From a virus, in IMG/VR virus record IMGVR_UViG_3300018719_000003, positions 1 to 64,000 of that record: a stretch of 64,000 nucleotides of DNA. One strand, 5' to 3'. The stretch's first letter is position 1, and each line of letters starts with the position of its first letter. The translations under genes and the position numbers were made by a program. This document shows, one piece after another, positions 26-37,729 of the stretch. The notes under the pieces are model-generated. The model was not told where the DNA came from, did no database searches, and saw nothing but the letters and a program-made list of their open reading frames with translations.

Positions 26-2716
26 GTGAGGCTTGGGACTGCTGAACAAGCAGCGATCGCCCAGTTCCCCTTTTACTCCCAAGCCATCAGCCCCAACACC
101 AATACATCACTAGGGGTTGACCTTCGGGGTGAAGCTAAACGAATCAACAGCACAACCAGGGAAACAGCGGTGACCGGAACTCCGGTCGGTGGCTTTCTGG
201 CGTCAGTCAACCCAACTCGATTAGTTAAGAACGCTCTTGAAGTTGCAACACTTACCAGTGACCAGCAGATTCTACGTGATGACGGTTGGGTGCAAGGTCA
301 GGTTTTGAGCAATGACCGATTACTGAAGTTGGGACTATTTATTAACAACAGTCTGCGGTTCCATATCCAGATTCAGGATAACGGGCACTATGCAGTAGTT
401 GAAGATAGTGTGGTAGTCTTTCTCTCTGGTACGCCGCCTCTGGCTCCCACGTATTTAGTCAATGATGTTTTCAGGGTTGAGTATCAGTCAGGCACTTTAC
501 TTTATCGAAAAAATGGCAATGTGGTTTACACGTCAACTCAGATTCCTTTATACCCTGCTAGGTTACAAGCACAGATTTTAGACTCCACTGTTTCAGCCAA
601 CGGCACCTCATTCAATGATCTAAAGTTGGCAGACGTGATGATTGACGAGCTAGGCAATGTGCAGCCTGTCACTGGCAGTACCACTATCAGGGTGGATGAG
701 GAGGATATCGAGAAATTCACCCCTAGCGATCGCTACAGAGTTAATGGGGTTGACTTCAGCATTATTGATAAAAACGAAAACACGCTAACAGTTGATAAAC
801 CCATCACCGTTGGTGGCAATGATGAAATCTATGCCGTCTACACTGCGAAATTTGAAAACACTCAACCTGTCTCCAGGATTGACTTTAACTTCGTGTTTTC
901 ACTGTGGGGAAGGGACGACAAAGGCAAACTGAAACGCCACGCGATCGCCTTCGATATCTTCATCAAAAAGACAGGCGCACCCAGTTTTACCCGACTCTAC
1001 AGAATCTTCGTCGCCAACAAAAATCAGGGTGAGATTCGGCGTTCACTCAAAATCAAGAATTTACCATTTGGCAAGTATCAATTTGAGTTTCGTTCCCTTG
1101 AAAGAGTATCAGGCGGATTCCCAATTTTGCGATTAAGTGATGGGGGTGCATTGGCTGATACTCCAACTGGGGTGATGATTGATGGCAAGCAAATCATTAT
1201 CGAGACTGAATTTGCCAGCGCCCCTAGTGAATCCAGTGCCAACAAAGACTTAAGTTTTGATGGCAAAGACCAAGTAAGCTCTGAATCTGCACCGCCGGGA
1301 CGAATCACCAGCCTGAATGAAATTACTCTACCTGCTGACTTGGGTCATTCCCGTGTGTCGCGGTATCCCAAGCTTTCGCTACTGGGACTAAAAGCGATCG
1401 CATCTGAGCGCCTCAACGGAACCCCAACCCCCAGCGCATTAATCCAACGAGGGCGAATCGGCTGGCTACTGCTATCGGCGAGTGAGGCGACTCCCGCGTC
1501 TATTCCAACTCAGTTAGTGTGCTTCGGTGAGGATTTCCTCTCATTCGGAATACAGCCAGGCAATAGGATTCGTAATCTAGATAAGAAGCTAGAGGATACC
1601 ATCGTCTCTGTGACAAGCAATACCATTACAACTACACTGGAATTGAATTGGGAACAGGGCGATCGCTTTGTGGTTTACGTCGAAGGCTCAACCTGTTACT
1701 TCCCTGATGTATTGGCTGATGGCATCCGCTCACCAGACGGTGGCTTGTCAGAGTTGGTGGATGCCGACCAAGTAATTGACTACTCCAGCTTCGTAAAGTC
1801 GAAGCGCTTCTGCATAAGGAACGGCTTCTTCTGGGATGGCACGCTGTCAGAACAGACCAACATTATCGAGTGGGCAGAACGAGAAGCGCCCCTTTCGCTG
1901 TTGTTTGCCTCAACGGTAGATGGCAGAATGGCACTGATACCGGAAGAATACGAGCCGCCAGCAGCTACTTTCACCGATAGTGTGATGGAGTCTTATAACG
2001 AAACGCTACTCCAACCCAAGGAGTTCAATCAGGTGACAGTGCGATTCAAAGACGGCAGTGATACCCGCTTCAGGGAGAAGACTGTTACCATTGCGACTCA
2101 AGAAGCATTCAACGGTTTGGAGCCAATCTACGAGGCTCCCACAATTGACGCAATGTCCAGCGTCAGCAATCCCGCGCAAGCTGAACGAATCGGACAAATG
2201 TTTCTTCAGTCATCCCGATTTCAGGACAGGGGAATTAACTTCACCGCCGGACTGCAAGGACTAGGGATTAAACCGGGTTCGCTCGTGGTTGGGGCGTCTG
2301 TCATTACCCAAATACACGCTGAAAGGTCAGGCTTCGTGGTAGCCGTGGAACCCTATGACGAGAATATGCAATCGCAAGTTGTCAAGCTGTCTCAGCCAGT
2401 AGAGGAGGGTTTTGACGGTAGCTATTCGGCATCTATTTATTACATTGACGGCACTACTAATCAGTCGAGTGTCCCCGTGGATACGGTAGACAGGGATGGT
2501 GAAACATGGCTACTGCTGTCAGAGTTGAATGCGCCCGTTAGCCCACCAGGTTTGAATCGAACAGGCGATTATTTAGCCGTAGGCAAGAATTCAGAATTGC
2601 GTCGGGTGTTTAGGGTTGCGGCGATTGAAATACAGTCAGAGTTCAAGTGTACGGTTGCGGCAACCCGATGGGATGAGCGGATGCTGGGAAGCGAGGGGTT
2701 GGTGACGATATTATGA
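26..2716 (+). CDS. Tail tip / host-specificity protein, lambda gpJ-like (probably 5' truncated by the window edge)
   Basis: 896-aa ORF whose frame stays open back to base 2. 'YPKLSLLGLKAIASERLNGTPTPSALIQRGRI' and the following region resemble the conserved core of J-family central tail fibre proteins (by eye). Confidence 0.6.
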   Translation: MRLGTAEQAAIAQFPFYSQAISPNTNTSLGVDLRGEAKRINSTTRETAVTGTPVGGFLASVNPTRLVKNALEVATLTSDQQILRDDGWVQGQVLSNDRLLKLGLFINNSLRFHIQIQDNGHYAVVEDSVVVFLSGTPPLAPTYLVNDVFRVEYQSGTLLYRKNGNVVYTSTQIPLYPARLQAQILDSTVSANGTSFNDLKLADVMIDELGNVQPVTGSTTIRVDEEDIEKFTPSDRYRVNGVDFSIIDKNENTLTVDKPITVGGNDEIYAVYTAKFENTQPVSRIDFNFVFSLWGRDDKGKLKRHAIAFDIFIKKTGAPSFTRLYRIFVANKNQGEIRRSLKIKNLPFGKYQFEFRSLERVSGGFPILRLSDGGALADTPTGVMIDGKQIIIETEFASAPSESSANKDLSFDGKDQVSSESAPPGRITSLNEITLPADLGHSRVSRYPKLSLLGLKAIASERLNGTPTPSALIQRGRIGWLLLSASEATPASIPTQLVCFGEDFLSFGIQPGNRIRNLDKKLEDTIVSVTSNTITTTLELNWEQGDRFVVYVEGSTCYFPDVLADGIRSPDGGLSELVDADQVIDYSSFVKSKRFCIRNGFFWDGTLSEQTNIIEWAEREAPLSLLFASTVDGRMALIPEEYEPPAATFTDSVMESYNETLLQPKEFNQVTVRFKDGSDTRFREKTVTIATQEAFNGLEPIYEAPTIDAMSSVSNPAQAERIGQMFLQSSRFQDRGINFTAGLQGLGIKPGSLVVGASVITQIHAERSGFVVAVEPYDENMQSQVVKLSQPVEEGFDGSYSASIYYIDGTTNQSSVPVDTVDRDGETWLLLSELNAPVSPPGLNRTGDYLAVGKNSELRRVFRVAAIEIQSEFKCTVAATRWDERMLGSEGLVTIL
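170..187. repeat. Palindrome family copy P1 (GTGACCGGA-AC-TCCGGTC)
   Basis: Read directly. Lies in frame inside the gpJ-like CDS and encodes VTGTPV. Confidence 0.85.
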
Positions 2717-3418: not shown

Positions 3419-3466
3419 GCGATCGCCACTCCCACGAATACAACAAGCATAGGACACCCGAACATG
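3419..3466 (+). promoter_or_regulatory. Conserved leader cassette, copy 1
   Basis: GCGATCGCCACTCCCACGAATACAACAAGCATAGGAC...ATG. Near-identical to the copy at 3884-3935. Confidence 0.6.
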
Positions 3467-3844
3467 AACACAGCAAGAATCGCCCAGCTCAAGGCAGTCA
3501 AAGCCAAACTAGAAGAAGCCAAAGCGTATCTAGAATCCATCTACCAGTATGGGTGCGCTCCGGTTGATGGGATTAATCAGTCGATTGCTGATTTAGATGC
3601 TGATATCGCTGAACACGAGAAGGCAGGCACTCCTGAAGGTATTGAAGAAGAGATTCAGACAGCGATGATGTACTTAGAAGAAGACCTTGAGAAGCTGACT
3701 AAGGGAGCGCTGATGCATCATTACGAGCGACTGGTAACGCTTCGCAAGTCTTGGTCAAAGGCGCGAGTAATTAAGGAGATTCTTGAGTATTCAGCCAGAA
3801 AGAGGCGGGTACAACTTACGAGCAAGCTGACGGCTGAGGTTTAA
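3464..3844 (+). CDS. Hypothetical coiled-coil protein
   Basis: 126-aa ORF preceded by the conserved leader. Confidence 0.65.
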   Translation: MNTARIAQLKAVKAKLEEAKAYLESIYQYGCAPVDGINQSIADLDADIAEHEKAGTPEGIEEEIQTAMMYLEEDLEKLTKGALMHHYERLVTLRKSWSKARVIKEILEYSARKRRVQLTSKLTAEV

Positions 3845-5515: not shown

Positions 5516-5554
5516 CCCTCAACCCAAAGCGATCGCACTCTCTCCCTCGAAAGT

Positions 5555-6103
5555 TTGAATGCGATCGCTATGTCCACCCACTCAAAAAGTAGACATCCCC
5601 CAATGATAACCACCACCGACTACGACCTGAAGTTCCTGTACCAGCTCACCGACCAAGTAATACATGGCGGCAATCACACGCAACTGATTCAGGAGATCGG
5701 TATTCCCGAACTACTAAACCATATCTCAACCACATTCTGGACACCAAAGGCACTGCTAGGATTGGATGTCAACCTAACCCCTGGCAAGGCATCACCCCTA
5801 GTTCAGGCAGCCATGCAGGCGCTGGGTATTCCTCAACTAATCGGCTTCACTCCTCTATACCCTCGCAGTAATCCCAAGTGTGGGGACGGGGCACTGCTTG
5901 AGGAATGCGAACGCAAGCTGATTAAGTTAGGACTGCGGTACTTATCAGCTAAGGGTAGGGCATTAGATTTTCCCAGTGGTGATGGCTGCTTTTTGTTGAT
6001 TGCTGCCACCCTGCAAGAGGCTGAGGTTGTGCTGAGTGATCAACTGAGTTGCGTTGTACTGCCAAGCGAGGGAGAGGCGACATTGGTTAGCTTGGTGGAT
6101 TAA
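5555..6103 (+). CDS. Hypothetical protein
   Basis: 182-aa ORF. An alternative ATG at 5570 is possible. Confidence 0.55.
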   Translation: MNAIAMSTHSKSRHPPMITTTDYDLKFLYQLTDQVIHGGNHTQLIQEIGIPELLNHISTTFWTPKALLGLDVNLTPGKASPLVQAAMQALGIPQLIGFTPLYPRSNPKCGDGALLEECERKLIKLGLRYLSAKGRALDFPSGDGCFLLIAATLQEAEVVLSDQLSCVVLPSEGEATLVSLVD

Positions 6104-6133: not shown

Positions 6134-6169
6134 CCCCGCAGCGTATCTCTCATCGGCTGCGGGGTTTTT
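6134..6169. terminator. Bidirectional intrinsic terminator hairpin
   Basis: CCCCGCAGC (6134-6142), 13-nt loop, GCTGCGGGG (6156-6164). Flanked by an A-run and a T-run, between convergent genes. Confidence 0.6.
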
Positions 6170-6199
6170 ATATCCTCTTGCACATTATCCTTTTGTATT

Positions 6200-6406
6200 C
6201 TAGGGCAACGACTCTTCATCTGTTGGCTGCGAAAATTTCCCTTCTAGCAGTTTCATTTCAACCAACAAAGTAGTTACACTATCTGACGCAGACTGGCTAT
6301 CCATTTTAGCGCCGTCTAGATATTTCATTAAGTAGTTGTAACCAGCACGAAGATGATCTGGAATTGGTTCACCTTGCTCTGTAAACTCTGGTAGTGATTC
6401 GTTCAT
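6200..6406 (-). CDS. Hypothetical protein (last gene of the minus-strand tail-tip block)
   Basis: 68-aa ORF abutting the stop of the upstream gene. Confidence 0.5.
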   Translation of the reverse strand: MNESLPEFTEQGEPIPDHLRAGYNYLMKYLDGAKMDSQSASDSVTTLLVEMKLLEGKFSQPTDEESLP

Positions 6407-7359: not shown

Positions 7360-7592
7360 TATGCGGTTTCCTCAATCAAAGTAAATCGCTGCATCTGCAC
7401 ACCCTCATGGACAACAACCTCGCAAAACATATCGAGCGGTCGTAGCCAGATACCGCCGCTAGCGTTTCTGTACACGACCATTTGCTCCTCTGTTTCTGAG
7501 TGCCGACCGATGCCGATTACTTCGTATATTCCGCCTTTAAAGTGGCGATAGATTCCGTTAGTTGCTTCTAATTCTGTAGTAGTTTCTGTCAT
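7359..7592 (-). CDS. DUF1653-like protein
   Basis: 'GIYRHFKGGIYEVIGIGRHSETEEQMVVYR...WLRPLDMF' matches the DUF1653 pattern. The ATG at 7592 overlaps the upstream stop as ATGA. Confidence 0.6.
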   Translation of the reverse strand: MTETTTELEATNGIYRHFKGGIYEVIGIGRHSETEEQMVVYRNASGGIWLRPLDMFCEVVVHEGVQMQRFTLIEETA

Positions 7593-7882
7593 AATTTGTC
7601 CTGGGTGTCGTAAATTCCCCGGTAGCTGCAACCAATAGACTTTAGTGTTACTGCGTGATTGGCTAACATCCTCACCTCTTGTATTTTTCGGAGGAGTGTT
7701 GTCAATTCCGCAGGGTCGTCAATTACTTCAGATAGTGCGATCGCAAAATCTTCTGACGCAGTGTTGATAACATTGTATTTGTTGCGAGTTTCTTCCTTTG
7801 TTGTGGGGTGATAAACAAATAAATCTCTAAGCTTTAACCTGTTAATTTTCAAGCAATTATCTGTTCCTTTTTTACTGGACAT
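7589..7882 (-). CDS. Hypothetical protein
   Basis: 97-aa ORF, apparently translationally coupled to the downstream gene. Confidence 0.5.
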   Translation of the reverse strand: MSSKKGTDNCLKINRLKLRDLFVYHPTTKEETRNKYNVINTASEDFAIALSEVIDDPAELTTLLRKIQEVRMLANHAVTLKSIGCSYRGIYDTQDKL

Positions 7883-7912
7883 CCTTAGACATCCGTTTAC
7901 AAAATTCCTGCT

Positions 7913-9055
7913 TCAACCAAGGCAGTCGGCTGCTACTTGTTCACAGGCGTTAATTCGGGGCGAACCGACCCTACTGCACAATTCATCAGGTGCATTTGCC
8001 AGATTGATAGACGCTTGCAAATCTCTGTCCTCTGTATGCCCACAATTAGGGCAAACGAAAATCCTATCAGATAGCTTGAGTCCTGAATGCTTTTCCCCGC
8101 ACTTGCGACACATCCGAGACGAAGGGAACCACCGATCCACTATGTCTAACGAACAAGCAAAACTAGGCGCTTTGTAGGTTAACTGGCGACGGAATTCGTA
8201 GAACCCTAAATCGCTAATCGCTTTAGATAATTTACGATTAGCGATCATCCCGGACACGTTCAAGTCTTCAATGCGGATGTGACCATATTTCTGGCAAATA
8301 GATGTCGTTGTCTTATTCAGAAAATCCTTACGCTGATTTGCGATATCACGATGCAACCGCGCCAATTTTTTGAAATATTTCTTGGCTTTGTTAGAAGCTT
8401 TCTCTCCCGTGCGCCTATTCCCGAATTGTTTAAGCGGTTTTGGAGCTTCTCTTTCGGTTCCATCGCTAATCGTTGCGAATGTTTTAACCCCTAGGTCGAT
8501 ACCAACAGGTTCAACTACTTCGTGCAAGATTGGGGGAATTCTTTCTGCATCGACACAGAATGAAACAAACCAGTCACCCGCTTCACAAGACAGTGTGAAA
8601 GTTTGAGTTATATAGGATTCCCTTAAAGACTCTTGTAGTCGAAATGTTCCTAGCGTTGGTATCTTGATAGTCTTCCCCTCTTTAACAACCCTTTTGCCGT
8701 TACTGTCGTAAACAGTAAACGAACAATTGTTTTTACGACGCTTGTAATTGGGGCTTTTGCCTAATCCATTCCGCCATCTTTTGAGTGATTCACCTAACGC
8801 CTGAAAAGCGGTTTGATAAACTTTTGAGGATAACTGTTGAGTCCATTCAAAACCCTCGGTTTTCTTGGTGACATTAGTAAAGCACTTTTTGATAGCAGCT
8901 AGTCGCTTGGTGTCAGAGGCTTTTATCCCGGCGTCAATTGACTGCCAAAACAATGAAAGACCGTAGTTGTACACGAACCGAGAAAAGCCAGCGTGAGAGC
9001 TAAATTTCGCCTTTTCTTGACTATTTAGTTTTAAACGGCGTTTAACTGCAAACAT
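7913..9055 (-). CDS. tnpB: TnpB (OrfB) RNA-guided nuclease, RuvC triad apparently intact
   Basis: 380 aa. Contains 'VGIDLGVKTF' (D), 'IRIEDLNVSGM' (E), zinc finger 'CRKCGEKH...CPNCGHTEDRDLQASINLA' (D). Confidence 0.85.
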   Translation of the reverse strand: MFAVKRRLKLNSQEKAKFSSHAGFSRFVYNYGLSLFWQSIDAGIKASDTKRLAAIKKCFTNVTKKTEGFEWTQQLSSKVYQTAFQALGESLKRWRNGLGKSPNYKRRKNNCSFTVYDSNGKRVVKEGKTIKIPTLGTFRLQESLRESYITQTFTLSCEAGDWFVSFCVDAERIPPILHEVVEPVGIDLGVKTFATISDGTEREAPKPLKQFGNRRTGEKASNKAKKYFKKLARLHRDIANQRKDFLNKTTTSICQKYGHIRIEDLNVSGMIANRKLSKAISDLGFYEFRRQLTYKAPSFACSLDIVDRWFPSSRMCRKCGEKHSGLKLSDRIFVCPNCGHTEDRDLQASINLANAPDELCSRVGSPRINACEQVAADCLG

Positions 9056-9082
9056 TGATTTAACTTGGCTGTGATATGATTA

Positions 9083-9105
9083 TTGTAACGCAATTTTGGT
9101 TACAA
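9083..9105. promoter_or_regulatory. Inverted repeat TTGTAAC-N9-GTTACAA in the tnpB/RHH divergent intergenic region
   Basis: Read directly. Lies 6 nt upstream of the RHH ATG. Candidate operator. Confidence 0.4.
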
Positions 9106-9110
9106 AAAAC

Positions 9111-9269
9111 ATGGGCAAGTACAATCTCAACGTGAGAATTACTGAAGAAGAACGAGAGATCATCAATGAATATTGTGAACAGGAGGAGAGAAGTCAATCT
9201 GATGTGGTTCGCGAATTCATCAGATCTCTTAAAAGGAAACTTAAGAAGAATCGAGATGTTCGAGAATAA
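9111..9269 (+). CDS. Ribbon-helix-helix (CopG/Arc-like) protein, RHH-1
   Basis: 52-aa ORF not in the track (below 60 aa): MGKYNLNVRITEEEREIINEYCEQEERSQSDVVREFIRSLKRKL. A beta-strand followed by two helices, paralogous to three other ORFs in the window. Confidence 0.6.
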   Translation: MGKYNLNVRITEEEREIINEYCEQEERSQSDVVREFIRSLKRKLKKNRDVRE

Positions 9270-9318
9270 GCGAGAATGTCTGAAAAATCATTGTCCTAAG
9301 TCAGTCTCCTGTTGATTA

Positions 9319-9585
9319 TCAATCTTTCCTTGCTCTTAGCGAGTTCAAGCATTCTTGAAGTGCTGCAAGAGCCTCCTCGTTTTCAGGACAGGGAAAGTCT
9401 TTGTGTTTGTGCTCAAGCTCATCCAAACACGCCTCAAGTACTTCAATCAAAAACGCACCGTTCCTGCCTTGCTCTTGAAGCGAACCCCTCTGCCAAGCAA
9501 TGCAGTATCCGATTCCGTAGCTTTGACCTCCGTCTGGCTTCCCCTCGGTTTCCCAGTGGTGAGAATTCCATTGTGTGTCTGTCAT
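9319..9585 (-). CDS. Hypothetical small phage protein
   Basis: 88-aa ORF that overlaps the upstream gene stop by 4 nt. The antisense plus-strand ORFs here look spurious. Confidence 0.55.
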   Translation of the reverse strand: MTDTQWNSHHWETEGKPDGGQSYGIGYCIAWQRGSLQEQGRNGAFLIEVLEACLDELEHKHKDFPCPENEEALAALQECLNSLRARKD

Positions 9586-10034
9586 GCAATTACGCTTCTA
9601 AGTTCAACACCCACATTGTAAATTCCACACCCAGGGAAAACAATGTCTTCCCTGCCCGGTATTCTAATCACTTGCTCTGGACTGGACACAACCACTTCGA
9701 CCGATAGCTGCTCTTGATTGAATCGCCAATAAGTACTGAACGGATTCACTATCCTAGCTACTACTTCGGTTGGGTGATAAAACAGGCTATCAGTTAGCAG
9801 GAATGATTGCCCATACATCCCGCCTGCCAAGTCCCAAAAATTCCATACCGCTCCTATTGCAGACTTCGTGACTGCCTGATACTCCAGCGTAATTGTCTGC
9901 CCAGTGCTGACGAATTGAGTGCGAACGTTCTGGGTGTTACCATCCCTGAATTCTGACCGACTGCCTTTGTATGGTGCGGTGGTGACAGGGTTGATGCGGT
10001 TGGGCTTTGGGTCAGACGGATAGATTAGAGACAT
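9582..10034 (-). CDS. Minor tail protein, lambda gpM-like
   Basis: 'SEFRDGNTQNVRTQ...TITLEYQAVTKSAIGAVWNFWDLAGGMYGQSFLL' parallels lambda M 'VRFGDGYSQRAP...TYSVTLSVPREEATVLESFLEEHGGWKSFLW'. The internal ATG (MSLIYPS) is taken as the start. Confidence 0.5.
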   Translation of the reverse strand: MSLIYPSDPKPNRINPVTTAPYKGSRSEFRDGNTQNVRTQFVSTGQTITLEYQAVTKSAIGAVWNFWDLAGGMYGQSFLLTDSLFYHPTEVVARIVNPFSTYWRFNQEQLSVEVVVSSPEQVIRIPGREDIVFPGCGIYNVGVELRSVIA

Positions 10035-10078
10035 AAGGTTTTCTTTGAGTTTATCAGGGCATGAAAAAAGTTCCAGTC

Positions 10079-11686
10079 TCACCCCGATTCCGAAAACAAT
10101 TGCAACTGTTGCCAATCAGAACCCTTAATTTGCTTAGATTTTCGGGTTCGTTTTCGTGAGTTTTCTGTAACTGTTAACGGGATCTCAAATAAACAGAGTT
10201 GAGTTAAATTGTCGGGTAAACTAACCGATGTCAGGCTTACGCCTGTTCCTCCTTCATCCCGTCCATTGGACGATCCAGGGGCTTGACTTTCCCGCACAGA
10301 ACGCGGGTAGATTTCAGCAAAGCTTGCTTTACTGAGAATGTTAATAGCCGCTGCTACATCTCGTGGTGCCGTGTAGCCGCATTGCTCACACTTATGGGTG
10401 CGTTGGTTTAAAGCTTTACTCTGCCTATGCTTGCACTGTGGACAGTCTTGAGAGGTATAGTGTGGTGCTACTCTCTCGAATAATCTACCTGCGACTTTGG
10501 CTTTAGTCTCAATCATTGTAAGCAGTTGTCCCAAACCAGCGTCGGCAAAGGACTTGTTTAAGCCTGACTTTTGCGCGGCATTATTTTTCTCCCAGACTCC
10601 AGAACCTTCCTCAGTTTCTACGGGTTTAGGACGACGATTGAGGTTCGCTATTTTGACATCTTCGATTGCGATCGCTGCGTAAGTTTTAACGCGATAAGTA
10701 CTAATTTTGTGATTGAATAACCGACGCTGATTAGCTACTTTTTCGTGTAATCTAGCCAGTATCTTGTTAGTTTTCTCCCAATTCTTAGAACGCCCGTTCA
10801 TTTGATACTGTCGAGATGCTTTCCGTTGTAGCCGTTTTAATTTTTTCTCTGACTTACGATAATATTTAGGAGGTTCAACTACATTACCATCGTCATCAGC
10901 GATTATGTACTGAAGCCCTACATCTAGTCCGCAAGCTTTTACAGAAGGCTTAACGGGTTCAACAGGTAAATTGCCAGTTAACTGAACGTACCATCCGCTT
11001 GAACGCTTACGGAGATGTACTACTTTTGGTTTTATTTCTGGATTCCATCTTTCGTCTAATGTTTTAGCTGTTAGCCACCCCACCTTAGGCAATCTGATTT
11101 TATTGCCCTTGATTTCAGTAGAAGTAGCACAGTCTAAAGACGTAAGTGACTTAATTGGATTACGTGATGACTTGAATTTTGGGCGCTTGCGGTTGCCTTT
11201 GACATATTCAAACCAAGCTTTAGAGAGAGTGTCAAGCATACCCCTAATGAAAGAGTTGGGTATATCACTTAGCCACGGCTGGTTTTTAGCGCTGAAGCAT
11301 ATAGTAAGGCTTTTGTATGGATTTTTGCTTTTGATCAGGAAAGCTGGCGGCTGATTTGATGGACTTCGTCTAATAGGACAGCACAGCCGATAATCCCTGT
11401 CTGGTGAAGAATAAAGCTGATCGGCTTTACTATAACGTCGAGAGTGAGACGCTGTAATTGAGCAAGCTAAACCCCACCCTCTATCTTGATTGCCGTGCCA
11501 TTCCCAAGGGACAGGATAGAAGTCATCCTCAAACACAGCGTTATTCTTTTCTCTCCAATACCACTGCTGATTCTCTTCTAGGAGTTCAAGCCCCATATTC
11601 CAGACTTTACGCAAGTCTACAAGCCAAGTCTCAACTCTTTGGACTGTGGCTTTGTTGGGACGGATTTTGAACTCTATCGTCTTCAT
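10079..11686 (-). CDS. tnpB: TnpB-like RNA-guided nuclease (long form), RuvC triad apparently intact
   Basis: 535 aa. Contains 'CGLDVGLQYII' (D), 'IAIEDVKIANLN' (E), 'CPQCKHRQ...CEQCGYTAPRDVAAAINIL' (D). The last 60 codons or so are low-complexity with hairpins (CAGGCTTACGCCTG, CCCGCACAGAACGCGGG), consistent with read-through into omega-RNA DNA. Confidence 0.8.
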   Translation of the reverse strand: MKTIEFKIRPNKATVQRVETWLVDLRKVWNMGLELLEENQQWYWREKNNAVFEDDFYPVPWEWHGNQDRGWGLACSITASHSRRYSKADQLYSSPDRDYRLCCPIRRSPSNQPPAFLIKSKNPYKSLTICFSAKNQPWLSDIPNSFIRGMLDTLSKAWFEYVKGNRKRPKFKSSRNPIKSLTSLDCATSTEIKGNKIRLPKVGWLTAKTLDERWNPEIKPKVVHLRKRSSGWYVQLTGNLPVEPVKPSVKACGLDVGLQYIIADDDGNVVEPPKYYRKSEKKLKRLQRKASRQYQMNGRSKNWEKTNKILARLHEKVANQRRLFNHKISTYRVKTYAAIAIEDVKIANLNRRPKPVETEEGSGVWEKNNAAQKSGLNKSFADAGLGQLLTMIETKAKVAGRLFERVAPHYTSQDCPQCKHRQSKALNQRTHKCEQCGYTAPRDVAAAINILSKASFAEIYPRSVRESQAPGSSNGRDEGGTGVSLTSVSLPDNLTQLCLFEIPLTVTENSRKRTRKSKQIKGSDWQQLQLFSESG

Positions 11687-11813
11687 CAGGCAATCCTTTT
11701 ACAAAGTCTCTAACTACCTCAGCCATCGGCACACCCAACTTTTCAGACTCTCTCTTAAGCTTGCTGTATTCTCGCTCACTGAATAAAATTTGAAGTCGTT
11801 TGTCTCGCTTCAT
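11631..11813 (-). CDS. Ribbon-helix-helix protein, RHH-2
   Basis: MKRDKRLQILFSEREYSKLKRESEKLGVPMAEVVRDFVKGLP. Same pattern as RHH-1, RHH-3 and RHH-4. Confidence 0.6.
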   Translation of the reverse strand: MKRDKRLQILFSEREYSKLKRESEKLGVPMAEVVRDFVKGLPDEDDRVQNPSQQSHSPKS

Positions 11814-12034
11814 ACCTCTAATTATACCTCAGAAATGATGTATAATTAATATAGCATCAAAGCTCTACGGGGGTGACACTCCGAAAGTTAAGCCTCTGGA
11901 TCTAGCAATGCTAGGGATGAAGGAGGAACAGTTAAAAACTGATGCTGTAGTGCTGCTACAGTCGATAGATCACCAGCTGCGTCTTTATTATCCGATAGCA
12001 CAGTTAAGCTGGATAATAAAGACAAATTCTGGCT

Positions 12035-21298: not shown

Positions 21299-21356
21299 CG
21301 CAAAAAAGCGATCGCCGTTGATGTATGCGATCGCTCTTAAGCTAATTATTCATACC

Positions 21357-21375
21357 GACCGGAGACTCCGGTCAC
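21357..21375. repeat. Palindrome family copy P3 (GACCGGAG-A-CTCCGGTCAC)
   Basis: Read directly. Bases 21372-21374 are the TGA stop of the minus-strand gene 21372..21692. A T-run follows on the plus strand, 59 nt after the TerL stop. Confidence 0.85.
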
Positions 21376-21692
21376 TTTTCAGTCGGTACTCGATGCAACT
21401 CCTTCCTCTGATAAAGCCCCTCGCCATCTCGCCGCTGTACTACCACTTCACCTAGCACGAAAGCCTTGACGATGCCAGGAACGTTGGGCTTGAGGTCGTA
21501 CTTGGCAGGCAGAATGAGGACGCGATCGCCTATGCCGAGGATGCTTGTGATGTCGGGACTGTCGGGGATGGTGAAGTCAAACCAAGGCGATACTTCTGGT
21601 ACTGGTTCAGGTTCGGGTTGTCCCGGAGCGGGGATGGAGAGAGACTCGAGTTCGGGGTTTGGGGTGAGGTCAAAGATTGATAGTTGGTTCAT
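21372..21692 (-). CDS. Hypothetical protein
   Basis: 106-aa ORF whose stop lies within palindrome P3. Confidence 0.55.
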   Translation of the reverse strand: MNQLSIFDLTPNPELESLSIPAPGQPEPEPVPEVSPWFDFTIPDSPDITSILGIGDRVLILPAKYDLKPNVPGIVKAFVLGEVVVQRRDGEGLYQRKELHRVPTEK

Positions 21693-23862: not shown

Positions 23863-23881
23863 GTGACCGGAGACTCCGGTC
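23863..23881. repeat. Palindrome family copy P4 (GTGACCGGAG-A-CTCCGGTC)
   Basis: Read directly. Starts on the first base after the TGA stop at 23860-23862. Confidence 0.85.
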
Positions 23882-23993
23882 GGTAGCTGCTAAGGTATCC
23901 CAAAACACGGGGTTATATCTAGGCGTGGCGATCGCAGCCGCCAAACCCGCATTCTATCGTCGAGTGTCGAAAATACCGGGAAAATGCAAGCAA

Positions 23994-26456: not shown

Positions 26457-27099
26457 GAGTAATCGCAAGCAAATCTACGTTCTGCTACGAAACGCAGTAA
26501 TCGCGTTTGTGGTATTCCTTGCGTTGCTAGAGTCTATCCATTTAATCGACTGGAGGCGTATTAATTGGGAGGTAGTAGCGCCTACCATCTTGAGCCTTGC
26601 CTGTAGCCTAGGAATTTGGGGTGTTGACCGTTACGGAAAAAATCGTGAGCAAAAATTAGCTCTTGCTGCTGCAATTAGGGCAGAGCAAGACGCAGCGATA
26701 AGACAGCGACAGGAAGCGAACCTTGCTCTAATTAATGGACTTCAGGAGAGCCTAGACTCGTCCGTAATTACCCTAGCTACCTTCGAGGATGAGCTGATGT
26801 CCATGAAGGCGACAGATACCGAAACGCTGAAGCGATTATCTGAGCTAGAGAGAGACTTGCAAACGCACCGAGAGAAGTACGCCCATACTGGCGCTGAGAA
26901 TGCATTGCGATCGCAGCAGAGGGCACTCTACAAACTACGCGCTCAACTGGACGGACTTTCGGGGCGTCATGAAACCGAGAAGCGGATCGATACTGTACTA
27001 GAGGCGGTGAACCAAACGAATGCACAGATGGAGCGGTTGCGGCATATCGTTAGGGATTTGTCGGGATGCATTGATGGTGTAGAGGAAACAGAAAAGTGA
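26449..27099 (+). CDS. Membrane-anchored coiled-coil protein
   Basis: 216 aa with two N-terminal hydrophobic segments followed by long coiled-coil-like sequence. The stop TGA lies inside palindrome P5. Confidence 0.6.
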   Translation: MDKSNRKQIYVLLRNAVIAFVVFLALLESIHLIDWRRINWEVVAPTILSLACSLGIWGVDRYGKNREQKLALAAAIRAEQDAAIRQRQEANLALINGLQESLDSSVITLATFEDELMSMKATDTETLKRLSELERDLQTHREKYAHTGAENALRSQQRALYKLRAQLDGLSGRHETEKRIDTVLEAVNQTNAQMERLRHIVRDLSGCIDGVEETEK

Positions 27100-27116
27100 C
27101 CGGAGACTCCGGTCAC
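27096..27116. repeat. Palindrome family copy P5 (GTGACCGGAG-A-CTCCGGTCAC, full 21 nt)
   Basis: Read directly. Bases 27097-27099 are the stop codon of 26449..27099. Confidence 0.9.
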
Positions 27117-27163
27117 TTGATTCTTGAGAATTTCTCTTCTAAGGATTGGATGTAGGTTAAACC

Positions 27164-27391: not shown

Positions 27392-27640
27392 CTAATCAAT
27401 AAATCGCTCTTTGGCGTGAGATAGCCATTTTTTCTTGACTTGATCTCGTTCTTGAGCTGCCATCCAGCCGTCGCAGAGTGCGGAGTCTTCTATAGGGCAA
27501 CTTACTCCTTGAGAGAAAAGATCCATGCCGCGATGAAAATTTTTTATTACTTTCATTTCTTGTCTGTGGACAACCTCTGCTCTTGTGGTTGCGGCTACGA
27601 CTTCTGGCTCTATCTTGCGAACTTTGTCTCTAAGGTTCAT
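27392..27640 (-). CDS. Hypothetical protein downstream of RHH-3
   Basis: 82-aa ORF with a 4-nt overlap with the RHH-3 stop. Confidence 0.5.
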   Translation of the reverse strand: MNLRDKVRKIEPEVVAATTRAEVVHRQEMKVIKNFHRGMDLFSQGVSCPIEDSALCDGWMAAQERDQVKKKWLSHAKERFID

Positions 27641-27816
27641 AGTTTTACCTCGTAAATAACTTTTGCTATTGGGACGCTTTCTGTGTTGTCAGGAAGGGCG
27701 TTCACTAGTTCCCTTACAACTACTGCTAACGGAACTCCGCGAACCTTGGCATGACGCTCTAGCTTGTCGTATGTTTGCTCTTCAAATCTGATTTTCAGTG
27801 ACCTTGTCTTGCTCAT
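27637..27816 (-). CDS. Ribbon-helix-helix protein, RHH-3
   Basis: MSKTRSLKIRFEEQTYDKLERHAKVRGVPLAVVVRELVNALP. The internal ATG at 27816 is used; the hydrophobic N-terminal extension in the track ORF is unlikely. Confidence 0.6.
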   Translation of the reverse strand: MSKTRSLKIRFEEQTYDKLERHAKVRGVPLAVVVRELVNALPDNTESVPIAKVIYEVKL

Positions 27817-28224: not shown

Positions 28225-28428
28225 ATGAACGACACAGAAGCGCTTGATTGGTGGGATTTATGCAAACCCATCAGAGAAGATAGCAACGGTCAAAGAATCT
28301 GGCAGTACTTTGCAGAGGAGGTGAAAGGCGTTTGGCGATATGCGATAGTGATTCGTTTCGATGATGGCGAACCACTAACTGCTACTGTCTTTGAAAATGG
28401 AACCGTCGAAATCTACGACTACGAATAA
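28225..28428 (+). CDS. Hypothetical protein
   Basis: 67-aa ORF. Confidence 0.5.
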   Translation: MNDTEALDWWDLCKPIREDSNGQRIWQYFAEEVKGVWRYAIVIRFDDGEPLTATVFENGTVEIYDYE

Positions 28429-28466
28429 ACAAAGGCGATCGCACCGTCCCCTGAGAAGTTCTGGAT

Positions 28467-28519
28467 GCGATCGCTGCCCACTACGCAATGCAAACCACAT
28501 AGGAGCAATCAGAATTATG
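28467..28519 (+). promoter_or_regulatory. Conserved leader cassette, copy 6
   Basis: GCGATCGCTGCCCACTACGCAATGCAAACCACATAGGAGCAATCAGAATTATG followed by TCACAG. Confidence 0.55.
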
Positions 28520-29278
28520 TCACAGATTATCGACCGCGAATGGAAAGGATTGCTGATCGGACAGCGAAAGCACAATGGTTACGTGAATGCAACTCAACTA
28601 GCCAAGGCATACTACCAAGCAACGAGTATCAGAAGAGAACCTGCGGATTGGTCGCGAATTAAGCGGACGAAAGAGTCAATCGCTTACCTGGCAACTGTTA
28701 CGGGAAATCCGGTATCAGATCTAGTCGTCGTAGTTCAAGGCAATTTCACAGGTAAAGAGCAGGGCACTTGGATTCACCCAGATTTAGCCGTTAACTTTGC
28801 TGTCTGGCTGTCGGTTGAGCTTGAGTTCATTGTTTTTGGGTGGGTTGAAGAGTGGCTAAAAGATGAACAAGCTAGTCAGCAGCAACAACGTATTGCCCCA
28901 AGCCCAGAAGAGCGATTAGCGATGGGAGTTGACGCCCTCAGTAAACTAGGCATTGAATTAGATAATCCTCGATTCTCCCAAGGATTACGCGATTGGGGAC
29001 TCAATTTACTTGGTATTGCACCCCGGCAACCTGAAATTGAAGGAGAGCGCTGGCTAGGTGCTGCTGAACGCGCCGAGGAGTTGGGCTTCGGTCGAATTGG
29101 TGCTGACCTTTCTCGTCGGGTAAAGCTTGGTAACTGGCTATCAAAATATGAGCTAGTCCGACGCAAGGAGAAACGATACTGCACTGGAACAGATCGGAGT
29201 ATCTGGTGTTATCAGCTTTGTGATGAACTCGACAAAGCGATCGCTGAATACTTCGAGGACGAGGAGCAGATGGGTTGA
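28517..29278 (+). CDS. KilA-N domain protein (paralogue 2)
   Basis: 'GLLIGQRKHNGYVNATQLAKAY...GTWIHPDLAVNFAVWLSVELEFIVFGWVEEWL'. The ATG at 28517 follows the leader cassette. Confidence 0.7.
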   Translation: MSQIIDREWKGLLIGQRKHNGYVNATQLAKAYYQATSIRREPADWSRIKRTKESIAYLATVTGNPVSDLVVVVQGNFTGKEQGTWIHPDLAVNFAVWLSVELEFIVFGWVEEWLKDEQASQQQQRIAPSPEERLAMGVDALSKLGIELDNPRFSQGLRDWGLNLLGIAPRQPEIEGERWLGAAERAEELGFGRIGADLSRRVKLGNWLSKYELVRRKEKRYCTGTDRSIWCYQLCDELDKAIAEYFEDEEQMG

Positions 29279-29630: not shown

Positions 29631-29780
29631 ATGTCAAGAACAAAAAAGCTAGATATTCGAGTATCTGAATATGAATACAAGCAATTACAGCAAGAGGCGG
29701 AAAAACAGGGCTGTTCAATGTCTGACTTGGTTCGGAAGTATATTTCTAAACTTCCAAAACCATTTTTCAAGGCAGGATAA
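29631..29780 (+). CDS. Ribbon-helix-helix protein, RHH-4 (orphan)
   Basis: MSRTKKLDIRVSEYEYKQLQQEAEKQGCSMSDLVRKYISKLP. Uses the internal ATG of the track ORF 29535..29780. Confidence 0.55.
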   Translation: MSRTKKLDIRVSEYEYKQLQQEAEKQGCSMSDLVRKYISKLPKPFFKAG

Positions 29781-36267: not shown

Positions 36268-37647
36268 ATGTTCTACCTAGGGAGAGTAATCACAAAACTA
36301 CAGCATTCGTCACAATCCCTTAAAGTCGCTTCATTATGTGGGATTGCAGTACTGCTGATTGCTCCAACAACTTTCTACCTTCAGGCTGAAATTGATAATT
36401 CGCTTAAAGTTATTGAGCGATCGCATATTCTTTCAATCAACCTGGAACGCACGTTGTCCAGCTTCCTGAGCATGGAGTTAGCGGCTAGGTCAATTACCTC
36501 GTATGAGTTACTAGAAGGGTCTGACAAAGAAGAGTTTGTCAATTCGTTTCAGAATAATTCTCAGCAGCTTGAATTGTATATTACTGAGCTAAAGGGGCAG
36601 TTAACGGAATCTACGCTCTTCGAGATGAATCAGCTTGTATACGCTAAGACAGATAGCCTGAATAAATTTATTAATTCATTCGCCATTGACCAAAAAGGCT
36701 CAATTCTGCTGATTAGGGCAGGGCGATTCATCTCTGATGATTTTCGGTCGTTGGTAAGAGAAAATCAATACAAGATAGTGGAACAGCAAGAGGCTCTGTT
36801 GCGTAAAGTGGGGTTGTTGTTAGTTGGGCGATTTGCGGCGATTGCATCTCTTTCTTTCTCGGTCATGGGTCTGGTGGGTGCGATCGCCTGGAGGAACCAC
36901 ACCCTCAGTATTCAGCGTCAATCTGATGCTTGTCAGTTGGACATTAGAGAACACGTCAGACAAGAGAAAGCTAAAGCCATTAGTCAATTAGCCCATGACG
37001 TAAAACTGTACTTGCAGCCGATTCTCACCTCTAGTGAGTTAATGCAAAGATACGGCAACAGCAATCCTCAGAAGTTTGCAAACTGGCTCAACAACATATT
37101 CAGAAGTGTTCGTCGCATCAATGAATTAGCCAGTGACTTAACCTTAGTTTCCTCCCTTGAATTAAACCAATTTCAGCCAGAGCTAGAATCTGCTTCTTTG
37201 GTAGAACTAATCAATTCGATAGTGGAAGATTTTACAAACCTAATTAAGCGGCAAATCAACCCGCCTCGTCAGCTTGTCCATCACATCAAAGGGGAGCCAA
37301 GAGATGTCCTGATTGATGTAAGGCTATGTGATAGGGCAATCAGGAATTTACTTAGCAATGCAATGAAGTATTCTCCTAATGGCGGACTAATATATGTTTC
37401 TGTTGACTTAAACACTTTGTCTATATCAGTGGCAGACGAAGGCATTGGTATCCCTGATGGGATTAGCAGTAAATTATTTGATGCATTCCAGAGAGCCGAT
37501 AACGTTGGGATGACTGAAGGCTTTGGCTTGGGTTTGTCGGTGGCTAAAGCAACTGCGATCGCTCACGGGGGGAGTGTGTCGGTAATGAGTCCTGGGAGTT
37601 TAGATGGCTATGAGTTTAAGACGGTATTTGAGTTGAGGCTGGGGTAG
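36268..37647 (+). CDS. Sensor histidine kinase
   Basis: An N-terminal TM segment and sensor region, a second TM, H-box 'AHDVKLYLQPI', N-box 'RNLLSNAMKYSP', G1 'VADEGIGIP' and G2 'GFGLGLSVAKA'. Confidence 0.85.
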   Translation: MFYLGRVITKLQHSSQSLKVASLCGIAVLLIAPTTFYLQAEIDNSLKVIERSHILSINLERTLSSFLSMELAARSITSYELLEGSDKEEFVNSFQNNSQQLELYITELKGQLTESTLFEMNQLVYAKTDSLNKFINSFAIDQKGSILLIRAGRFISDDFRSLVRENQYKIVEQQEALLRKVGLLLVGRFAAIASLSFSVMGLVGAIAWRNHTLSIQRQSDACQLDIREHVRQEKAKAISQLAHDVKLYLQPILTSSELMQRYGNSNPQKFANWLNNIFRSVRRINELASDLTLVSSLELNQFQPELESASLVELINSIVEDFTNLIKRQINPPRQLVHHIKGEPRDVLIDVRLCDRAIRNLLSNAMKYSPNGGLIYVSVDLNTLSISVADEGIGIPDGISSKLFDAFQRADNVGMTEGFGLGLSVAKATAIAHGGSVSVMSPGSLDGYEFKTVFELRLG

Positions 37648-37729
37648 TCCACCGTGCTGGACTCGAACCAACTCCAGGTAGTAGCGAGGTTTGCGTATCT
37701 CGTCTATCAGCTCCCATGAACTACCCCGC

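Follow-up and report, generated by a model that had tools for sequence, protein, structure and literature searches.

Two cyanophage cassettes pairing ribbon-helix-helix genes with predicted RNA-guided nucleases: an arc-tnpB element and an RHH-preceded type V-U2 effector

Introduction

Zedaveinyte et al. (bioRxiv 10.1101/2023.11.20.567912, Science 2024) described genes for Arc-like ribbon-helix-helix (RHH) proteins adjoining tnpB. Moon et al. (2026 preprint, bioRxiv 10.64898/2026.09.24.754181) reported that Arc binds at the tnpB promoter and represses it, also in elements composed of arc and tnpB only. In such IS605-family elements the small RHH gene is internal and sits by tnpB, typically divergent from it, with a short two-promoter region that carries inverted binding motifs. 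The Arc proteins tested were clostridial; those described here are cyanobacterial or cyanophage proteins, likened to them by gene layout. Arc-like ORFs are known beside Cas12k as well as TnpB. Archaeal RHH/MazE-TnpB pairs have been read as toxin-antitoxin systems (Altae-Tran et al. 2023, PMC10691335), and for the type V-K CAST of cyanobacteria Ziemann et al. (2023, 2025) report the MerR-type regulator CvkR and, in some, an Arc-like RHH regulator. TnpB-driven transposon retention is reported by Meers et al. 2023, and a V-U2 system is already known in the cyanophage vB_AphaS-CL131 (PMC6293099).

Here we describe two RHH-nuclease gene pairs located in the accessory-gene block of a ~108-kb cyanophage, within a window (the whole stretch analysed) of 64,000 nucleotides. 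The initial annotation did not recognise this pairing as a described IS architecture; to take it for undescribed is wrong in the light of the reports on Arc-like and archaeal RHH/MazE pairs cited above. The pairing is genuine and conserved, yet it is the known 'Arc'-TnpB arrangement, and the locus therefore adds a further example with some novel twists rather than founding a new class.

Results

The four ORFs (TnpB-1, TnpB-2, RHH-1 and RHH-2) exist where the initial annotation had placed them, and the 55-bp spacer, its TTGTAAC-N9-GTTACAA repeat and the 56-nt RHH-2 overlap are likewise present (Table 1). The reported lack of a TnpA beside either TnpB was also borne out, as neither the adjacent ORFs nor 54 mid-size ORFs of the window yielded a Y1 or a serine TnpA. 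Rfam gave no match to a group I intron.

Table 1 Features of the two cassettes, in window coordinates.
Feature	Coordinates	Strand	Description
Presumed guide of the TnpB-1 RNA	7839..7858	-	First ~20 nt beyond the right end, AATTGCTTGAAAATTAACAG; placed from the right-end boundary
TnpB-1 right end and putative omega-RNA-like scaffold	7859..7980	-	From within the ORF 3' part to 54 nt beyond the stop
TnpB-1	7913..9055	-	380 aa; NF040570 guided_TnpB, 248 bits; Pfam domains
Divergent control region	9056..9110	.	55 bp; candidate operator TTGTAAC-N9-GTTACAA at 9083-9105
RHH-1	9111..9269	+	52 aa; Arc/CopG-type ribbon-helix-helix; Pfam RHH_1
Presumed TnpB-2 (C2c8) guide/spacer	10050..10069	-	TTTTTTCATGCCCTGATAAA...; directly after the terminal repeat
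Single V-U2-type repeat	10070..10106	-	GTTGCAATTGTTTTCGGAATCGGGGTGAGACTGGAAC; overlaps 3' end of the TnpB-2 ORF
TnpB-2 guide-RNA scaffold (predicted)	10070..10300	-	Within the ORF tail; RNAalifold
TnpB-2	10079..11686	-	535 aa; type V-U2 (C2c8) Cas12-like effector; NF038192 V_cas_c2c8
49-nt inverted repeat, downstream arm	10243..10291	.	Equivalent to scaffold stem-loop helices 3 and 4
RHH-2	11631..11813	-	60 aa; ribbon-helix-helix; co-oriented with TnpB-2, overlaps its start by 56 nt
Candidate RHH-2 operator	11819..11848	.	TAATTATAC-N12-GTATAATTA; right arm holds TATAAT -10 box
49-nt inverted repeat, upstream arm	11883..11931	.	84% complementary to 10243-10291
Left limit of the TnpB-2 unit	11932..11961	-	L141/L004 homology starts at ~11944 (blastn); terminator-like hairpin 11945-11961

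One family profile scored both RHH-1 (E 1.6e-24) and RHH-2 (E 3.4e-23). All 28 profile matches with E <= 1e-9 in 889 kb of related loci lay no more than 160 nt from where a TnpB begins, and an RHH match by TnpB was present at 23 of 80 reference-genome loci, nearly always divergent as in RHH-1. The RHH-TnpB linkage therefore holds in other genomes and is not due to chance. Since the genes are linked elsewhere and a master copy with TnpA did not turn up, the RHH genes are read neither as chance neighbours nor as flanking phage DNA, the two outcomes named in the initial annotation. Its claim that RHH-1 and RHH-2 are paralogues stands at the family level; compared directly, the two are weakly similar (26% over 35 aa, E 0.003), and the closest relatives of RHH-2 are RHH-3 and RHH-4 of the same phage, not RHH-1. 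Neither RHH-3 nor RHH-4, both encoded in the window, has a TnpB beside it, nor has the P0326 lineage, and the family is thus not exclusive to TnpB. Many chromosomal cyanobacterial RHH partners carry a conserved C-terminal tail, G[AV]LNP[IL]D.P.IP.D, beyond the RHH core; RHH-1 and RHH-2 lack it. Perfect inverted repeats upstream of RHH genes were not significant across the family in a crude test (median p 0.54).

Cassette 1 (about 7859-9270) is classified as a TnpA-less IS605-family (IS1341-like) arc-tnpB element, a very common cyanobacterial type. TnpB-1 contains the OrfB_IS605 and Cas12f1-like_TNB domains (Pfam) and keeps the RuvC residues D187/E263/D345 and the four Cys of the zinc finger. 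Both TnpB proteins had been annotated as intact, and the D/E/D residues and zinc finger are indeed present in each; the status of TnpB-1 is doubtful because it lacks, by an in-frame deletion after residue 208, a 16-aa segment present in 119 of 120 homologues. This unusual deletion, missed initially, may impair the protein. RHH-1 matched Pfam RHH_1 (24 bits, cutoff 20.5) and belongs to the TnpB-associated subfamily 'YC...DVVREFIRSL'. All TnpB-1 relatives examined keep the RHH-1/TnpB-1 layout with differing flanking genes, and divergent homologues of 51-55 aa with a spacer of 52-55 nt were present in L115, L118-121 and L122-125. The palindrome TTGTAACGCAATTTTGGTTACAA at 9083-9105 occurs once in the window (0.00 expected by chance), and towards tnpB-1 its half-site GTTACAA overlaps a -10-like box, TACAAT. 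GTAAC...TTGCGTTACA is invariant across five relatives, and L114 carries TTGTAACG-N7-CGTTACAA. At the right end, nucleotide conservation extends beyond the stop codon and ends at ...AACAGAT (L114, L115, L118, L122), with L114 position 5245 opposite window 7859 (blastn). The presumed guide matched only itself in the sequence data searched, and no target was detected there.

We assign cassette 2 (10070 to about 11944) as a type V-U2 (C2c8) effector that forms an overlapping operon with RHH-2 ahead of it. TnpB-2 scored 421 bits against NCBIfam NF038192 V_cas_c2c8 (cutoff 350), contains OrfB_IS605 and Cas12f1-like_TNB domains (Pfam) and is 39% identical to the V-U2 protein of CL131; the D255/E342/D443 triad and four zinc-finger Cys are invariant across its family. 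Its V-U2 Cas12-like identity had not been noted in the initial annotation. Relatives of TnpB-2 carry CRISPR arrays of up to at least 17 repeats of 36-37 nt (form G[AT]TGCAA...TTGGAAG), and L004 has three copies of the TnpB-2-type repeat unit with spacers of 26 and 32 nt; the array in the window is down to one repeat, fused to the scaffold.

RNAalifold predicted 75 pairs in this scaffold, and the anti-repeat at 10195-10211 is predicted to pair with the repeat 3' half at 10074-10091. Changes on both sides were counted for 17 pairs, compared with 8.3 +/- 2.0 after shuffling (17 reached in 0 of 500) and 1-5 when partners were slid, which supports the predicted TnpB-2 guide-RNA scaffold. The downstream-arm hairpin also covaries (CGTCC/GGACG, CTAGC/GCTAG, CGACT/AGTCG). 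The upstream arm is found in L141 and L004, partially in L003 and not in L001, and is 96% identical, in inverted orientation, to a segment of the L003 scaffold. The sequence after the terminal repeat differs from locus to locus at every locus, and the presumed TnpB-2 guide had no other match and no target in the sequence data searched.

RHH-2 was not recognised by Pfam, and its AF2 model (core pLDDT 94-98), with CopG and other RHH proteins as best Foldseek matches, identifies a predicted ribbon-helix-helix fold. The RHH-2/TnpB-2 layout is common to L141, L003, L001 and L004, and the overlap is kept in all five distinct members of the TnpB-2 close clade, with unrelated flanks. The -10 box (11821-11826) lies 7 nt upstream of the RHH-2 ATG. 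The perfect 9-nt arms of the candidate operator were matched by 0 of 200 shuffles, its half-site is found nowhere else in the window (0.26 expected), and L141 retains ATTATAC-N11-GTATAAT.

L003, L141 and L114/L115 come from related phages (77-97% DNA identity, shared genes) with cassettes at other sites. RHH-1 lies within a homology block common to L114, whose cassette occupies another site. Against window 2632-2653, in an intact, uninterrupted tail gene, the guide of L114 shows 2 mismatches, compared with 8 against the recoded gene end of L114 itself, and the remnant copy still encodes the ancestral C-terminus. A guide that matches the intact window tail gene, together with a recoded gene end of its own, reads as a homing signature in L114/L115. 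No flanking duplication of the window's own cassettes was found beyond chance.

Discussion

We consider it fairly probable (about 0.65) that two mobile cassettes, independent of one another, occupy the region, each with an RHH repressor gene, a RuvC nuclease gene and a guide RNA. The regulated, non-autonomous homing module proposed in the initial annotation is the best-supported reading, backed by private repeats over promoter elements, variable sites and the L114/L115 guide match. The analysis establishes that the genes are linked, and it establishes an RHH fold, inverted repeats that are private and conserved, an RNA scaffold, variable positions in related phages and one guide-to-empty-site match; from these we infer DNA binding, repression, nuclease activity and homing of both cassettes. 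The RHH genes probably encode small repressors that would keep the partner nuclease turned down. As a dimer of dimers, each RHH protein would bind the inverted repeat in front of its own gene. RHH-1 and tnpB-1 diverge from the 55-bp region, in which the conserved palindrome overlaps the predicted promoters, and RHH-1 would repress transcription; RHH-2 would autorepress from a candidate operator that covers the -10 box of the RHH-2/TnpB-2 operon. The nuclease would then be expressed in a short burst once the phage genome enters the cell, and at a low, constant level from then on. With the guide encoded at the 3' end of its own gene, it would cut DNA matching the cassette flank, that is, unoccupied sites in related phage genomes, and recombinational repair would copy or retain the cassette. 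Alternatively, a host TnpA acting in trans could move it.

Cassette 2 could instead be a phage weapon, a minimal V-U2 CRISPR-like system in which the single guide, or in relatives the several spacers, would target competing phages, plasmids or host defence DNA, with RHH-2 setting no more than the timing and level of expression. The C2c8 score, multi-spacer arrays in relatives (many IMG/VR viral contigs and CL131 included, PMC6293099), the three repeats of L004, a member of the close clade whose spacers are not from the flank, and the Acb2/Tad1-like anti-defence gene that adjoins cassette 2 would all fit. However, the window, L141, L003 and L001 have one repeat each, and the 'spacer' is adjacent DNA that varies with insertion site, as in a TnpB omega-RNA; adaptation genes are absent, and spacers and guides had no match in the sequence data searched. 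We regard this explanation as unlikely, though it is the strongest of the alternatives. In a toxin-antitoxin-like pair RHH would bind the nuclease and block guide or target binding, DNA binding being secondary; Altae-Tran et al. 2023 (PMC10691335) proposed this for the archaeal genes on the basis of an AF2 co-fold. The RHH-2/TnpB-2 overlap may allow translational coupling, and the tail on many chromosomal partners is antitoxin-like, but RHH-1 and RHH-2 are without it, the catalytic sites are canonical, unlike those of the rearranged archaeal clade, and the cassettes are mobile rather than fixed. Operator-like palindromes over promoters and the Arc experiments point to transcriptional control, which leaves such pairs with a small probability.

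Domestication had been offered in the initial annotation as an alternative, and would make the nucleases RNA-guided repressors (TldR-like) or fixed phage genes under RHH control. Exapted TnpB proteins have precedents, and the TnpB-1 deletion could abolish cleavage and spare binding; yet intact RuvC triads and zinc fingers, positions that vary among close phages and flank-derived guides all speak against domestication. We judge it very improbable. Slightly more remote still is incidental adjacency, with the RHH genes as ordinary phage regulators flanking inserted TnpB genes, in the manner of RHH-3 and RHH-4, which sit away from any TnpB and to which RHH-2 is nearer than to RHH-1; a solo RHH lineage also exists. 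Identical layouts nevertheless recur with differing flanks in chromosomes and phages, and RHH-1 is inside the L114-shared block although the L114 cassette site differs. The linkage data contradict incidental adjacency, and the differing flanks exclude a single vertically inherited locus.

Judged by sequence, cassette 1 agrees with the Arc-element description in every respect. In cassette 2 the RHH gene is co-oriented and overlapping and the nuclease is a V-U2 effector; neither cassette has a TnpA or group I intron. Cassette 2 shares with the CL131 system the C2c8 model, a 37-nt repeat type that overlaps the ORF end, the phage location and a cyanobacterial host range. CL131 has a 10-spacer array compared with one repeat here, and neither it nor other array-bearing relatives have an RHH gene upstream. 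The archaeal RHH/MazE-TnpB pairs resemble cassette 2, but are non-mobile with rearranged catalytic sites, whereas the window units have canonical DED and variable positions. Cyanobacterial V-K CAST, mobile elements described in the reports cited above, similarly encode a small transcription factor beside a TnpB-derived Cas12, whose gene it represses; Cas12k there is nuclease-dead and works with Tn7-like TnsB/C/TniQ, whereas the window is without transposition genes. The novelty is modest: a V-U2 effector accompanied by an Arc-type gene, and cassettes at differing sites in related phages, one with a homing signature. Like phage homing endonuclease genes, the L114/L115 cassette interrupts its own target, brings a recoded gene end and has a guide that matches the intact gene; unlike them, its target recognition would be RNA-guided, and we infer its TnpA-independent homing from phage to phage from sequence.

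Gene content of the cassettes

The window, in which genes for a large terminase, tail and virion proteins and an endolysin were found, is phage DNA. HIP1 motifs (GCGATCGC) are scattered across its entire length, and its exact proteins sit on a contig of ~107.7 kb; a DNA search of the cassette region against deposited phages returned no match. A plus-strand ORF of 3073 aa occupies 54523-63744, and in a related phage (locus L001) a 4170-aa protein with TMP_3 (tape-measure) and Glyco_hydro_19 domains lies directly downstream of the cassette.

The four ORFs described in the initial annotation, two nuclease genes each with a ribbon-helix-helix (RHH) neighbor, were all found in place, and the 56-nt overlap of RHH-2 with the start of TnpB-2 was confirmed. 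TnpB-2 matched the NCBIfam model NF038192 (C2c8) with 421 bits (cutoff 350) over profile positions 1-456 of 457 and is, by this match, a type V-U2 (C2c8) effector. The description of both nucleases as intact held for the catalytic residues, since TnpB-2 keeps the canonical D/E/D triad as does TnpB-1 (D187/E263/D345, together with the four Cys). It did not hold for the whole of TnpB-1, which lacks 16 residues after residue 208; the missing segment (KKAITKLRKLQCHNRN in relatives) was found in 119/120 homologues, and the activity of TnpB-1 is therefore uncertain.

The reported absence of TnpA was borne out. No Y1 (PF01797) or serine (PF00239) domain was detected in the adjacent ORFs or in 54 mid-size ORFs of the window, no TnpA was found among the genes called near the relatives, and none was found near chromosomal RHH-TnpB pairs among 25 of 48 matched families of the neighborhood scan. 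On these searches neither cassette is an autonomous IS200/IS605 or IS607 transposon, in which TnpA lies within the element. Rfam yielded nothing at gathering score in the region, and since no group I intron was found, the cassettes are not IStrons.

Features of the two cassettes, further RHH genes of the window, and positions of cassettes in related phages
Feature	Position	Strand	Description
TnpB-1	7913-9055	-	ORF; OrfB_IS605 and Cas12f1-like_TNB domains
RHH-1	9111-9269	+	ORF; Pfam RHH_1
TnpB-2	10079-11686	-	ORF; OrfB_IS605 and Cas12f1-like_TNB domains
RHH-2	11631-11813	-	ORF; AlphaFold2 fold
RHH-2 candidate operator	11848-11819		TAATTATAC-N12-GTATAATTA; inverted repeat preceding RHH-2
49-nt inverted repeat	10243-10291 and 11883-11931		arms 84% complementary
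RHH-3	~27637-27816	-	RHH-family profile; E 2.3e-8 / 2.4e-10 for the pair RHH-3 / RHH-4
RHH-4	~29631-29780	+	RHH-family profile; E 2.3e-8 / 2.4e-10 for the pair RHH-3 / RHH-4
L003 cassette	between homologues of window 37638 and 38598		RHH-2/TnpB-2 type
L141 cassette	beside homologue of window 32421		RHH-2/TnpB-2 type
L114/L115 cassette	in tail gene (window 26-2716), 85 nt before stop codon		RHH-1/TnpB-1 type

RHH proteins and their linkage to the nucleases

RHH-1 matched Pfam RHH_1 with 24 bits (cutoff 20.5), and RHH-2 gave nothing significant against Pfam. An AlphaFold2 model of RHH-2, built from 56 family sequences, showed two helices after an N-terminal segment in extended form; the core pLDDT was 94-98. 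Its best Foldseek matches were to CopG (2cpg/1ea4; rmsd 1.2-1.3 A over 37 residues), with E-values that are weak for this 60-residue query, and the top PDB matches (CopG, VapB, TacA and NikA) were all RHH proteins. A PDB sequence search with the RHH profile returned only chance matches to a portal protein. Both are small stand-alone RHH proteins, RHH-2 by its predicted fold. Their proposed paralogy was supported at the family level by strong scores on one profile, but pairwise similarity was weak (E 0.003). Two further RHH genes of the window, RHH-3 and RHH-4, adjoin no TnpB and are nearer to RHH-2 than RHH-1 is. They flank a KilA-N gene (28391-29278), and RHH-3 is the first gene of a small minus-strand operon. 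RHH-1 is of the type that accompanies TnpB ('YC...DV[VL]RE[FL]IRSL'). In many chromosomal TnpB-associated RHH proteins (L018-L059, e.g. L033 3534-3722) the C-terminal tail is conserved as G[AV]LNP[IL]D.P.IP.D; RHH-1 and RHH-2 do not have this tail, which by analogy with antitoxins could be a protein-interaction motif.

Co-occurrence was assessed in other genomes, and the linkage of RHH to TnpB was real and conserved across relatives. Four close relatives of TnpB-2 (L003, 87% identity; L141, 78%; L001, 72%; L004, 68%) are each preceded by an RHH ORF of 59-61 aa that overlaps the nuclease start by 56 nt, with unrelated flanking genes. In the TnpB-1 family (L115, L118-121, L122-125), a divergent RHH gene of 51-55 aa is separated from the TnpB start by 52-55 nt, and the surroundings are ordinary chromosomal DNA. 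An RHH profile scan of 889 kb of loci, fetched by similarity to TnpB-2, gave 28 matches (E <= 1e-9), and all 28 lay <=160 nt from a TnpB start; chance adjacency was rejected on these linkage data. When the search was reversed and started from RHH, two homologues had a divergent TnpB 34-38 nt away, one had a TnpB at 690 nt, one ran off the end of its contig and one lineage was solo; seen from the RHH side, linkage is strong, not absolute. Comparison of these loci places the RHH gene inside the mobile unit, beside tnpB, and shows it conserved in relatives.

Candidate operators

The repeat TTGTAAC-N9-GTTACAA reported in the 55-bp spacer between RHH-1 and TnpB-1 was found at 9083-9105; it is unique in the window, and its palindrome core is invariant in TnpB-1 relatives. 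The candidate operator of RHH-2 carries a TATAAT box in its right arm, 7 nt from the ATG. Its arm length was reached by 0/200 shuffles, and its half-site occurs nowhere else in the window. Both cassettes of the window have private, conserved inverted repeats over -10-like boxes, which are putative operators as judged from sequence. A promoter scan gave sites no more numerous than in shuffles, and a crude family-wide test for perfect inverted repeats upstream of RHH genes showed no significant enrichment.

Upstream of the RHH-2 homologue, L141 keeps the repeat of the window. Other repeats occur in the remainder of the clade (TGCTA-N9-TAGCA in L003 and L004, AACGCTA-N7-TAGCGTT in L001), and the RHH beta-strands differ as well. 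The concordance of differing repeats with differing beta-strands suggests that regulator and operator were exchanged as a single module.

Predicted guide RNAs of TnpB-2 and TnpB-1

Relatives of TnpB-2 were collected by alignment-based scans; single-protein scans of reference genomes and of a metagenome gave no close relatives. Full-length relatives of 38-53% identity, found in cyanobacterial genomes and on numerous viral contigs, have CRISPR arrays with as many as 17 or more repeats of 36-37 nt, the first repeat overlapping the 3' end of the ORF, and are without an RHH gene. At some array-bearing V-U2 loci a small XRE-type HTH gene, in place of RHH, adjoins the effector (L011 ~3419-3631; L100/L103, upstream of the C2c8 gene), which suggests that small regulators were recruited repeatedly at V-U2 loci.

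Downstream of TnpB-2 in the window there is a single repeat and no CRISPR array of at least two repeats. The terminal 37-mer (10070-10106), which ends at the TnpB-2 right end at 10070, matches array repeats in length and end motifs. Within the close clade, L003, L141 and L001 likewise have one repeat each and L004 has three, in a mini-array (6139-6307) whose first repeat is the ORF 3' end. In L001 a second, incomplete repeat (GATTAGACTGGAAC, ~7645-7658) lies 18 nt past the first. The mini-array and the partial repeat look like intermediates between an omega-RNA and a CRISPR array. With members that carry multi-spacer arrays, three repeats, or guides fused to a single repeat, the V-U2 clade offers a compact series in which to study the interconversion of omega-RNA and CRISPR array.

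The last ~230 nt of the TnpB-2 ORF encode a conserved folded scaffold of 75 pairs. In a covariance check of this 3' region, 17 of the 75 pairs were changed on both sides, compared to 8.3 +/- 2.0 in shuffles, with the caveat that one set of five sequences served both for predicting the structure and for counting the pairs. None of 500 shuffles reached 17, and 1-5 pairs were obtained with partners slid. In one scaffold helix an internal anti-repeat (10195-10211) pairs with the 3' half of the repeat (10074-10091), an arrangement that resembles a tracrRNA:crRNA duplex joined in cis.

The TnpB-1 right end lies at 7859, and nucleotide conservation reaches 54 nt beyond the stop codon. Each cassette accordingly combines a nuclease bearing the RuvC triad with a 3' omega-RNA ending at the right end, that of TnpB-1 being predicted from nucleotide conservation. 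An adjacent minus-strand ORF (7589-7882) matched an Acb2/Tad1-hairpin domain (Pfam 31.2 bits, cutoff 27) and on that basis may encode a sponge protein with anti-CBASS or anti-Thoeris function. The ATG annotated for this ORF, together with the first 8 codons, falls within the conserved right end of the TnpB-1 element, which may supply the start codon; alternatively, translation may in fact begin with the TTG at codon 11.

Scaffold helices 3 and 4 form the stem-loop that makes up the inner arm of a 49-nt inverted repeat in cassette 2, and the outer arm lies between the left limit of the cassette and the RHH-2 promoter. L141 and L004 retain the outer arm, L003 has part of it and L001 none; it is 96% identical, inverted, to a scaffold segment of L003. 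Terminal repeats of a transposon were rejected as an explanation because homology between loci extends ~170 nt past the inner arm; the repeat may be what remains of a head-to-head copy, or it may serve in regulation or processing. At a relaxed threshold, Rfam placed a sub-threshold RAGATH-18 match on the same stem-loop (10246-10281, minus strand; 26.7 against 44.9 bits, E 0.065), which was treated as chance.

Comparison with known systems

The initial annotation did not recognize the pairing as a described architecture, yet RHH-TnpB pairs are already known. Zedaveinyte et al. (bioRxiv 10.1101/2023.11.20.567912) reported ORFs for Arc-like RHH proteins in association with TnpB and with Cas12k. 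Moon et al. (preprint 28 Sep 2026, bioRxiv 10.64898/2026.09.24.754181) used ChIP-seq and reporter assays to show binding of Arc to the intergenic promoter and repression of tnpB; some of their elements consist of arc and tnpB only, and the typical layout is divergent. The Arc clade under experiment is represented by the seeds WP_003367503.1 and WP_094548610.1. Given this precedent, cassette 1 is a new cyanobacterial and cyanophage member of the same architecture by its layout. Cassette 2 is a variant in which the Arc-type gene and the gene of a V-U2 effector overlap in one operon, the effector's array being collapsed to one repeat. Cyanophage CL131 has a V-U2 system with 10 spacers (PMC6293099); its effector is 39% identical to TnpB-2, and no small regulator gene is annotated upstream.

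Two other kinds of system were compared. Altae-Tran et al. (PMC10691335) described archaeal RHH/MazE-TnpB pairs, read as toxin-antitoxin-like, in which the RuvC site is rearranged and the pair is non-mobile; here the D/E/D site is canonical, positions vary and the hosts are cyanobacteria and phages. TldR-type repressors are nuclease-dead through loss of RuvC residues, whereas both nucleases of the window keep theirs. The earlier proposal of a regulated, non-autonomous homing module holds in part: the cassettes lack TnpA and are probably regulated and homing, and their architecture was already on record. Putative Arc-type control of TnpB is widespread in cyanobacteria, with an RHH partner, almost always divergent, at 23/80 sampled chromosomal TnpB loci of reference genomes. 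Its extension to a Cas12-like V-U2 effector would broaden a principle of regulation for which clostridial IS605 elements have until now been the only demonstrated case.

Mobility and a proposed model of homing

Phages related to that of the window (L003, L141 and L114/L115; shared genes 77-97% identical in DNA) carry their cassettes at other sites. They provide natural pairs of occupied and empty sites, one with a guide-target match and a recoded gene end, and make TnpA-independent homing by TnpB-family nucleases directly testable. Comparison of empty sites, suggested earlier as a way to define the element ends, gave one usable pair, L114 against the window tail gene. No clean junction was obtained for L003 and L141, as the corresponding window sites are rearranged or hold a TnpB remnant, and no conserved left ends were identified. 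The remnant, a TnpB zinc-finger (TNB) segment at 37730-37999 on the minus strand (Pfam 29.6 bits) within intergenic 37647-38583, occupies the site of the L003 RHH-C2c8 cassette, a possible hot spot of insertion.

The right end of the L114 cassette (...AACAGAT) adjoins the last 85 nt of the tail gene, in a little-changed copy where the C-terminus of the window protein is still encoded, and the functional tail gene is completed on the other side of the cassette by a strongly diverged copy. The guide of the L114/L115 cassette has 2 mismatches to window 2632-2653 (preceded by TTGAA); to its own recoded copy, that of L114 has 8. One of the 2 is a synonymous change at the TAM-proximal end, and the window tail gene is therefore a potential target, or an escape variant, of the L114/L115 element. 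TTGAR is a candidate TAM, drawn from this one occupied/empty pair. The L114 arrangement is that expected of a homing element which eliminates its target site. At the window's own cassettes, flanking target duplications were not above chance, and neither guide had a detectable target or an exact match in IMG/VR.

We tentatively propose, with a probability of roughly 0.3, that RNA-guided homing carries TnpA-less RHH-nuclease cassettes from one co-infecting cyanophage to another, both those with TnpB and those with a V-U2 effector that has reverted to a single guide. Insertion would interrupt the cassette's own target, and within a gene a recoded gene end would both restore the gene and escape the guide. 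RHH would time a burst of nuclease upon entry into a naive cell and then shut it off. If true, the V-U2 sub-clade would show that a CRISPR effector has gone back, in nature, to the selfish and transposon-like way of life of a nuclease with a single guide.

Two minor observations concern intergenic sequences. On the minus strand at ~37650-37735, just past a kinase gene, a T-arm-like motif (GGTTCGAGTCC) with tRNA-like flanks may be what is left of a tRNA or of an attachment site; ARAGORN and Rfam called nothing there. The palindrome GTGACCGGAG[AT]CTCCGGTCAC has six intergenic copies in the window (21355-21376, 23863-23884, 27096-27117, 33958-33979, 38596-38617 and 44714-44735), also flanks the L003 cassette (~5548-5568), and may be a phage-specific terminator or regulatory site.
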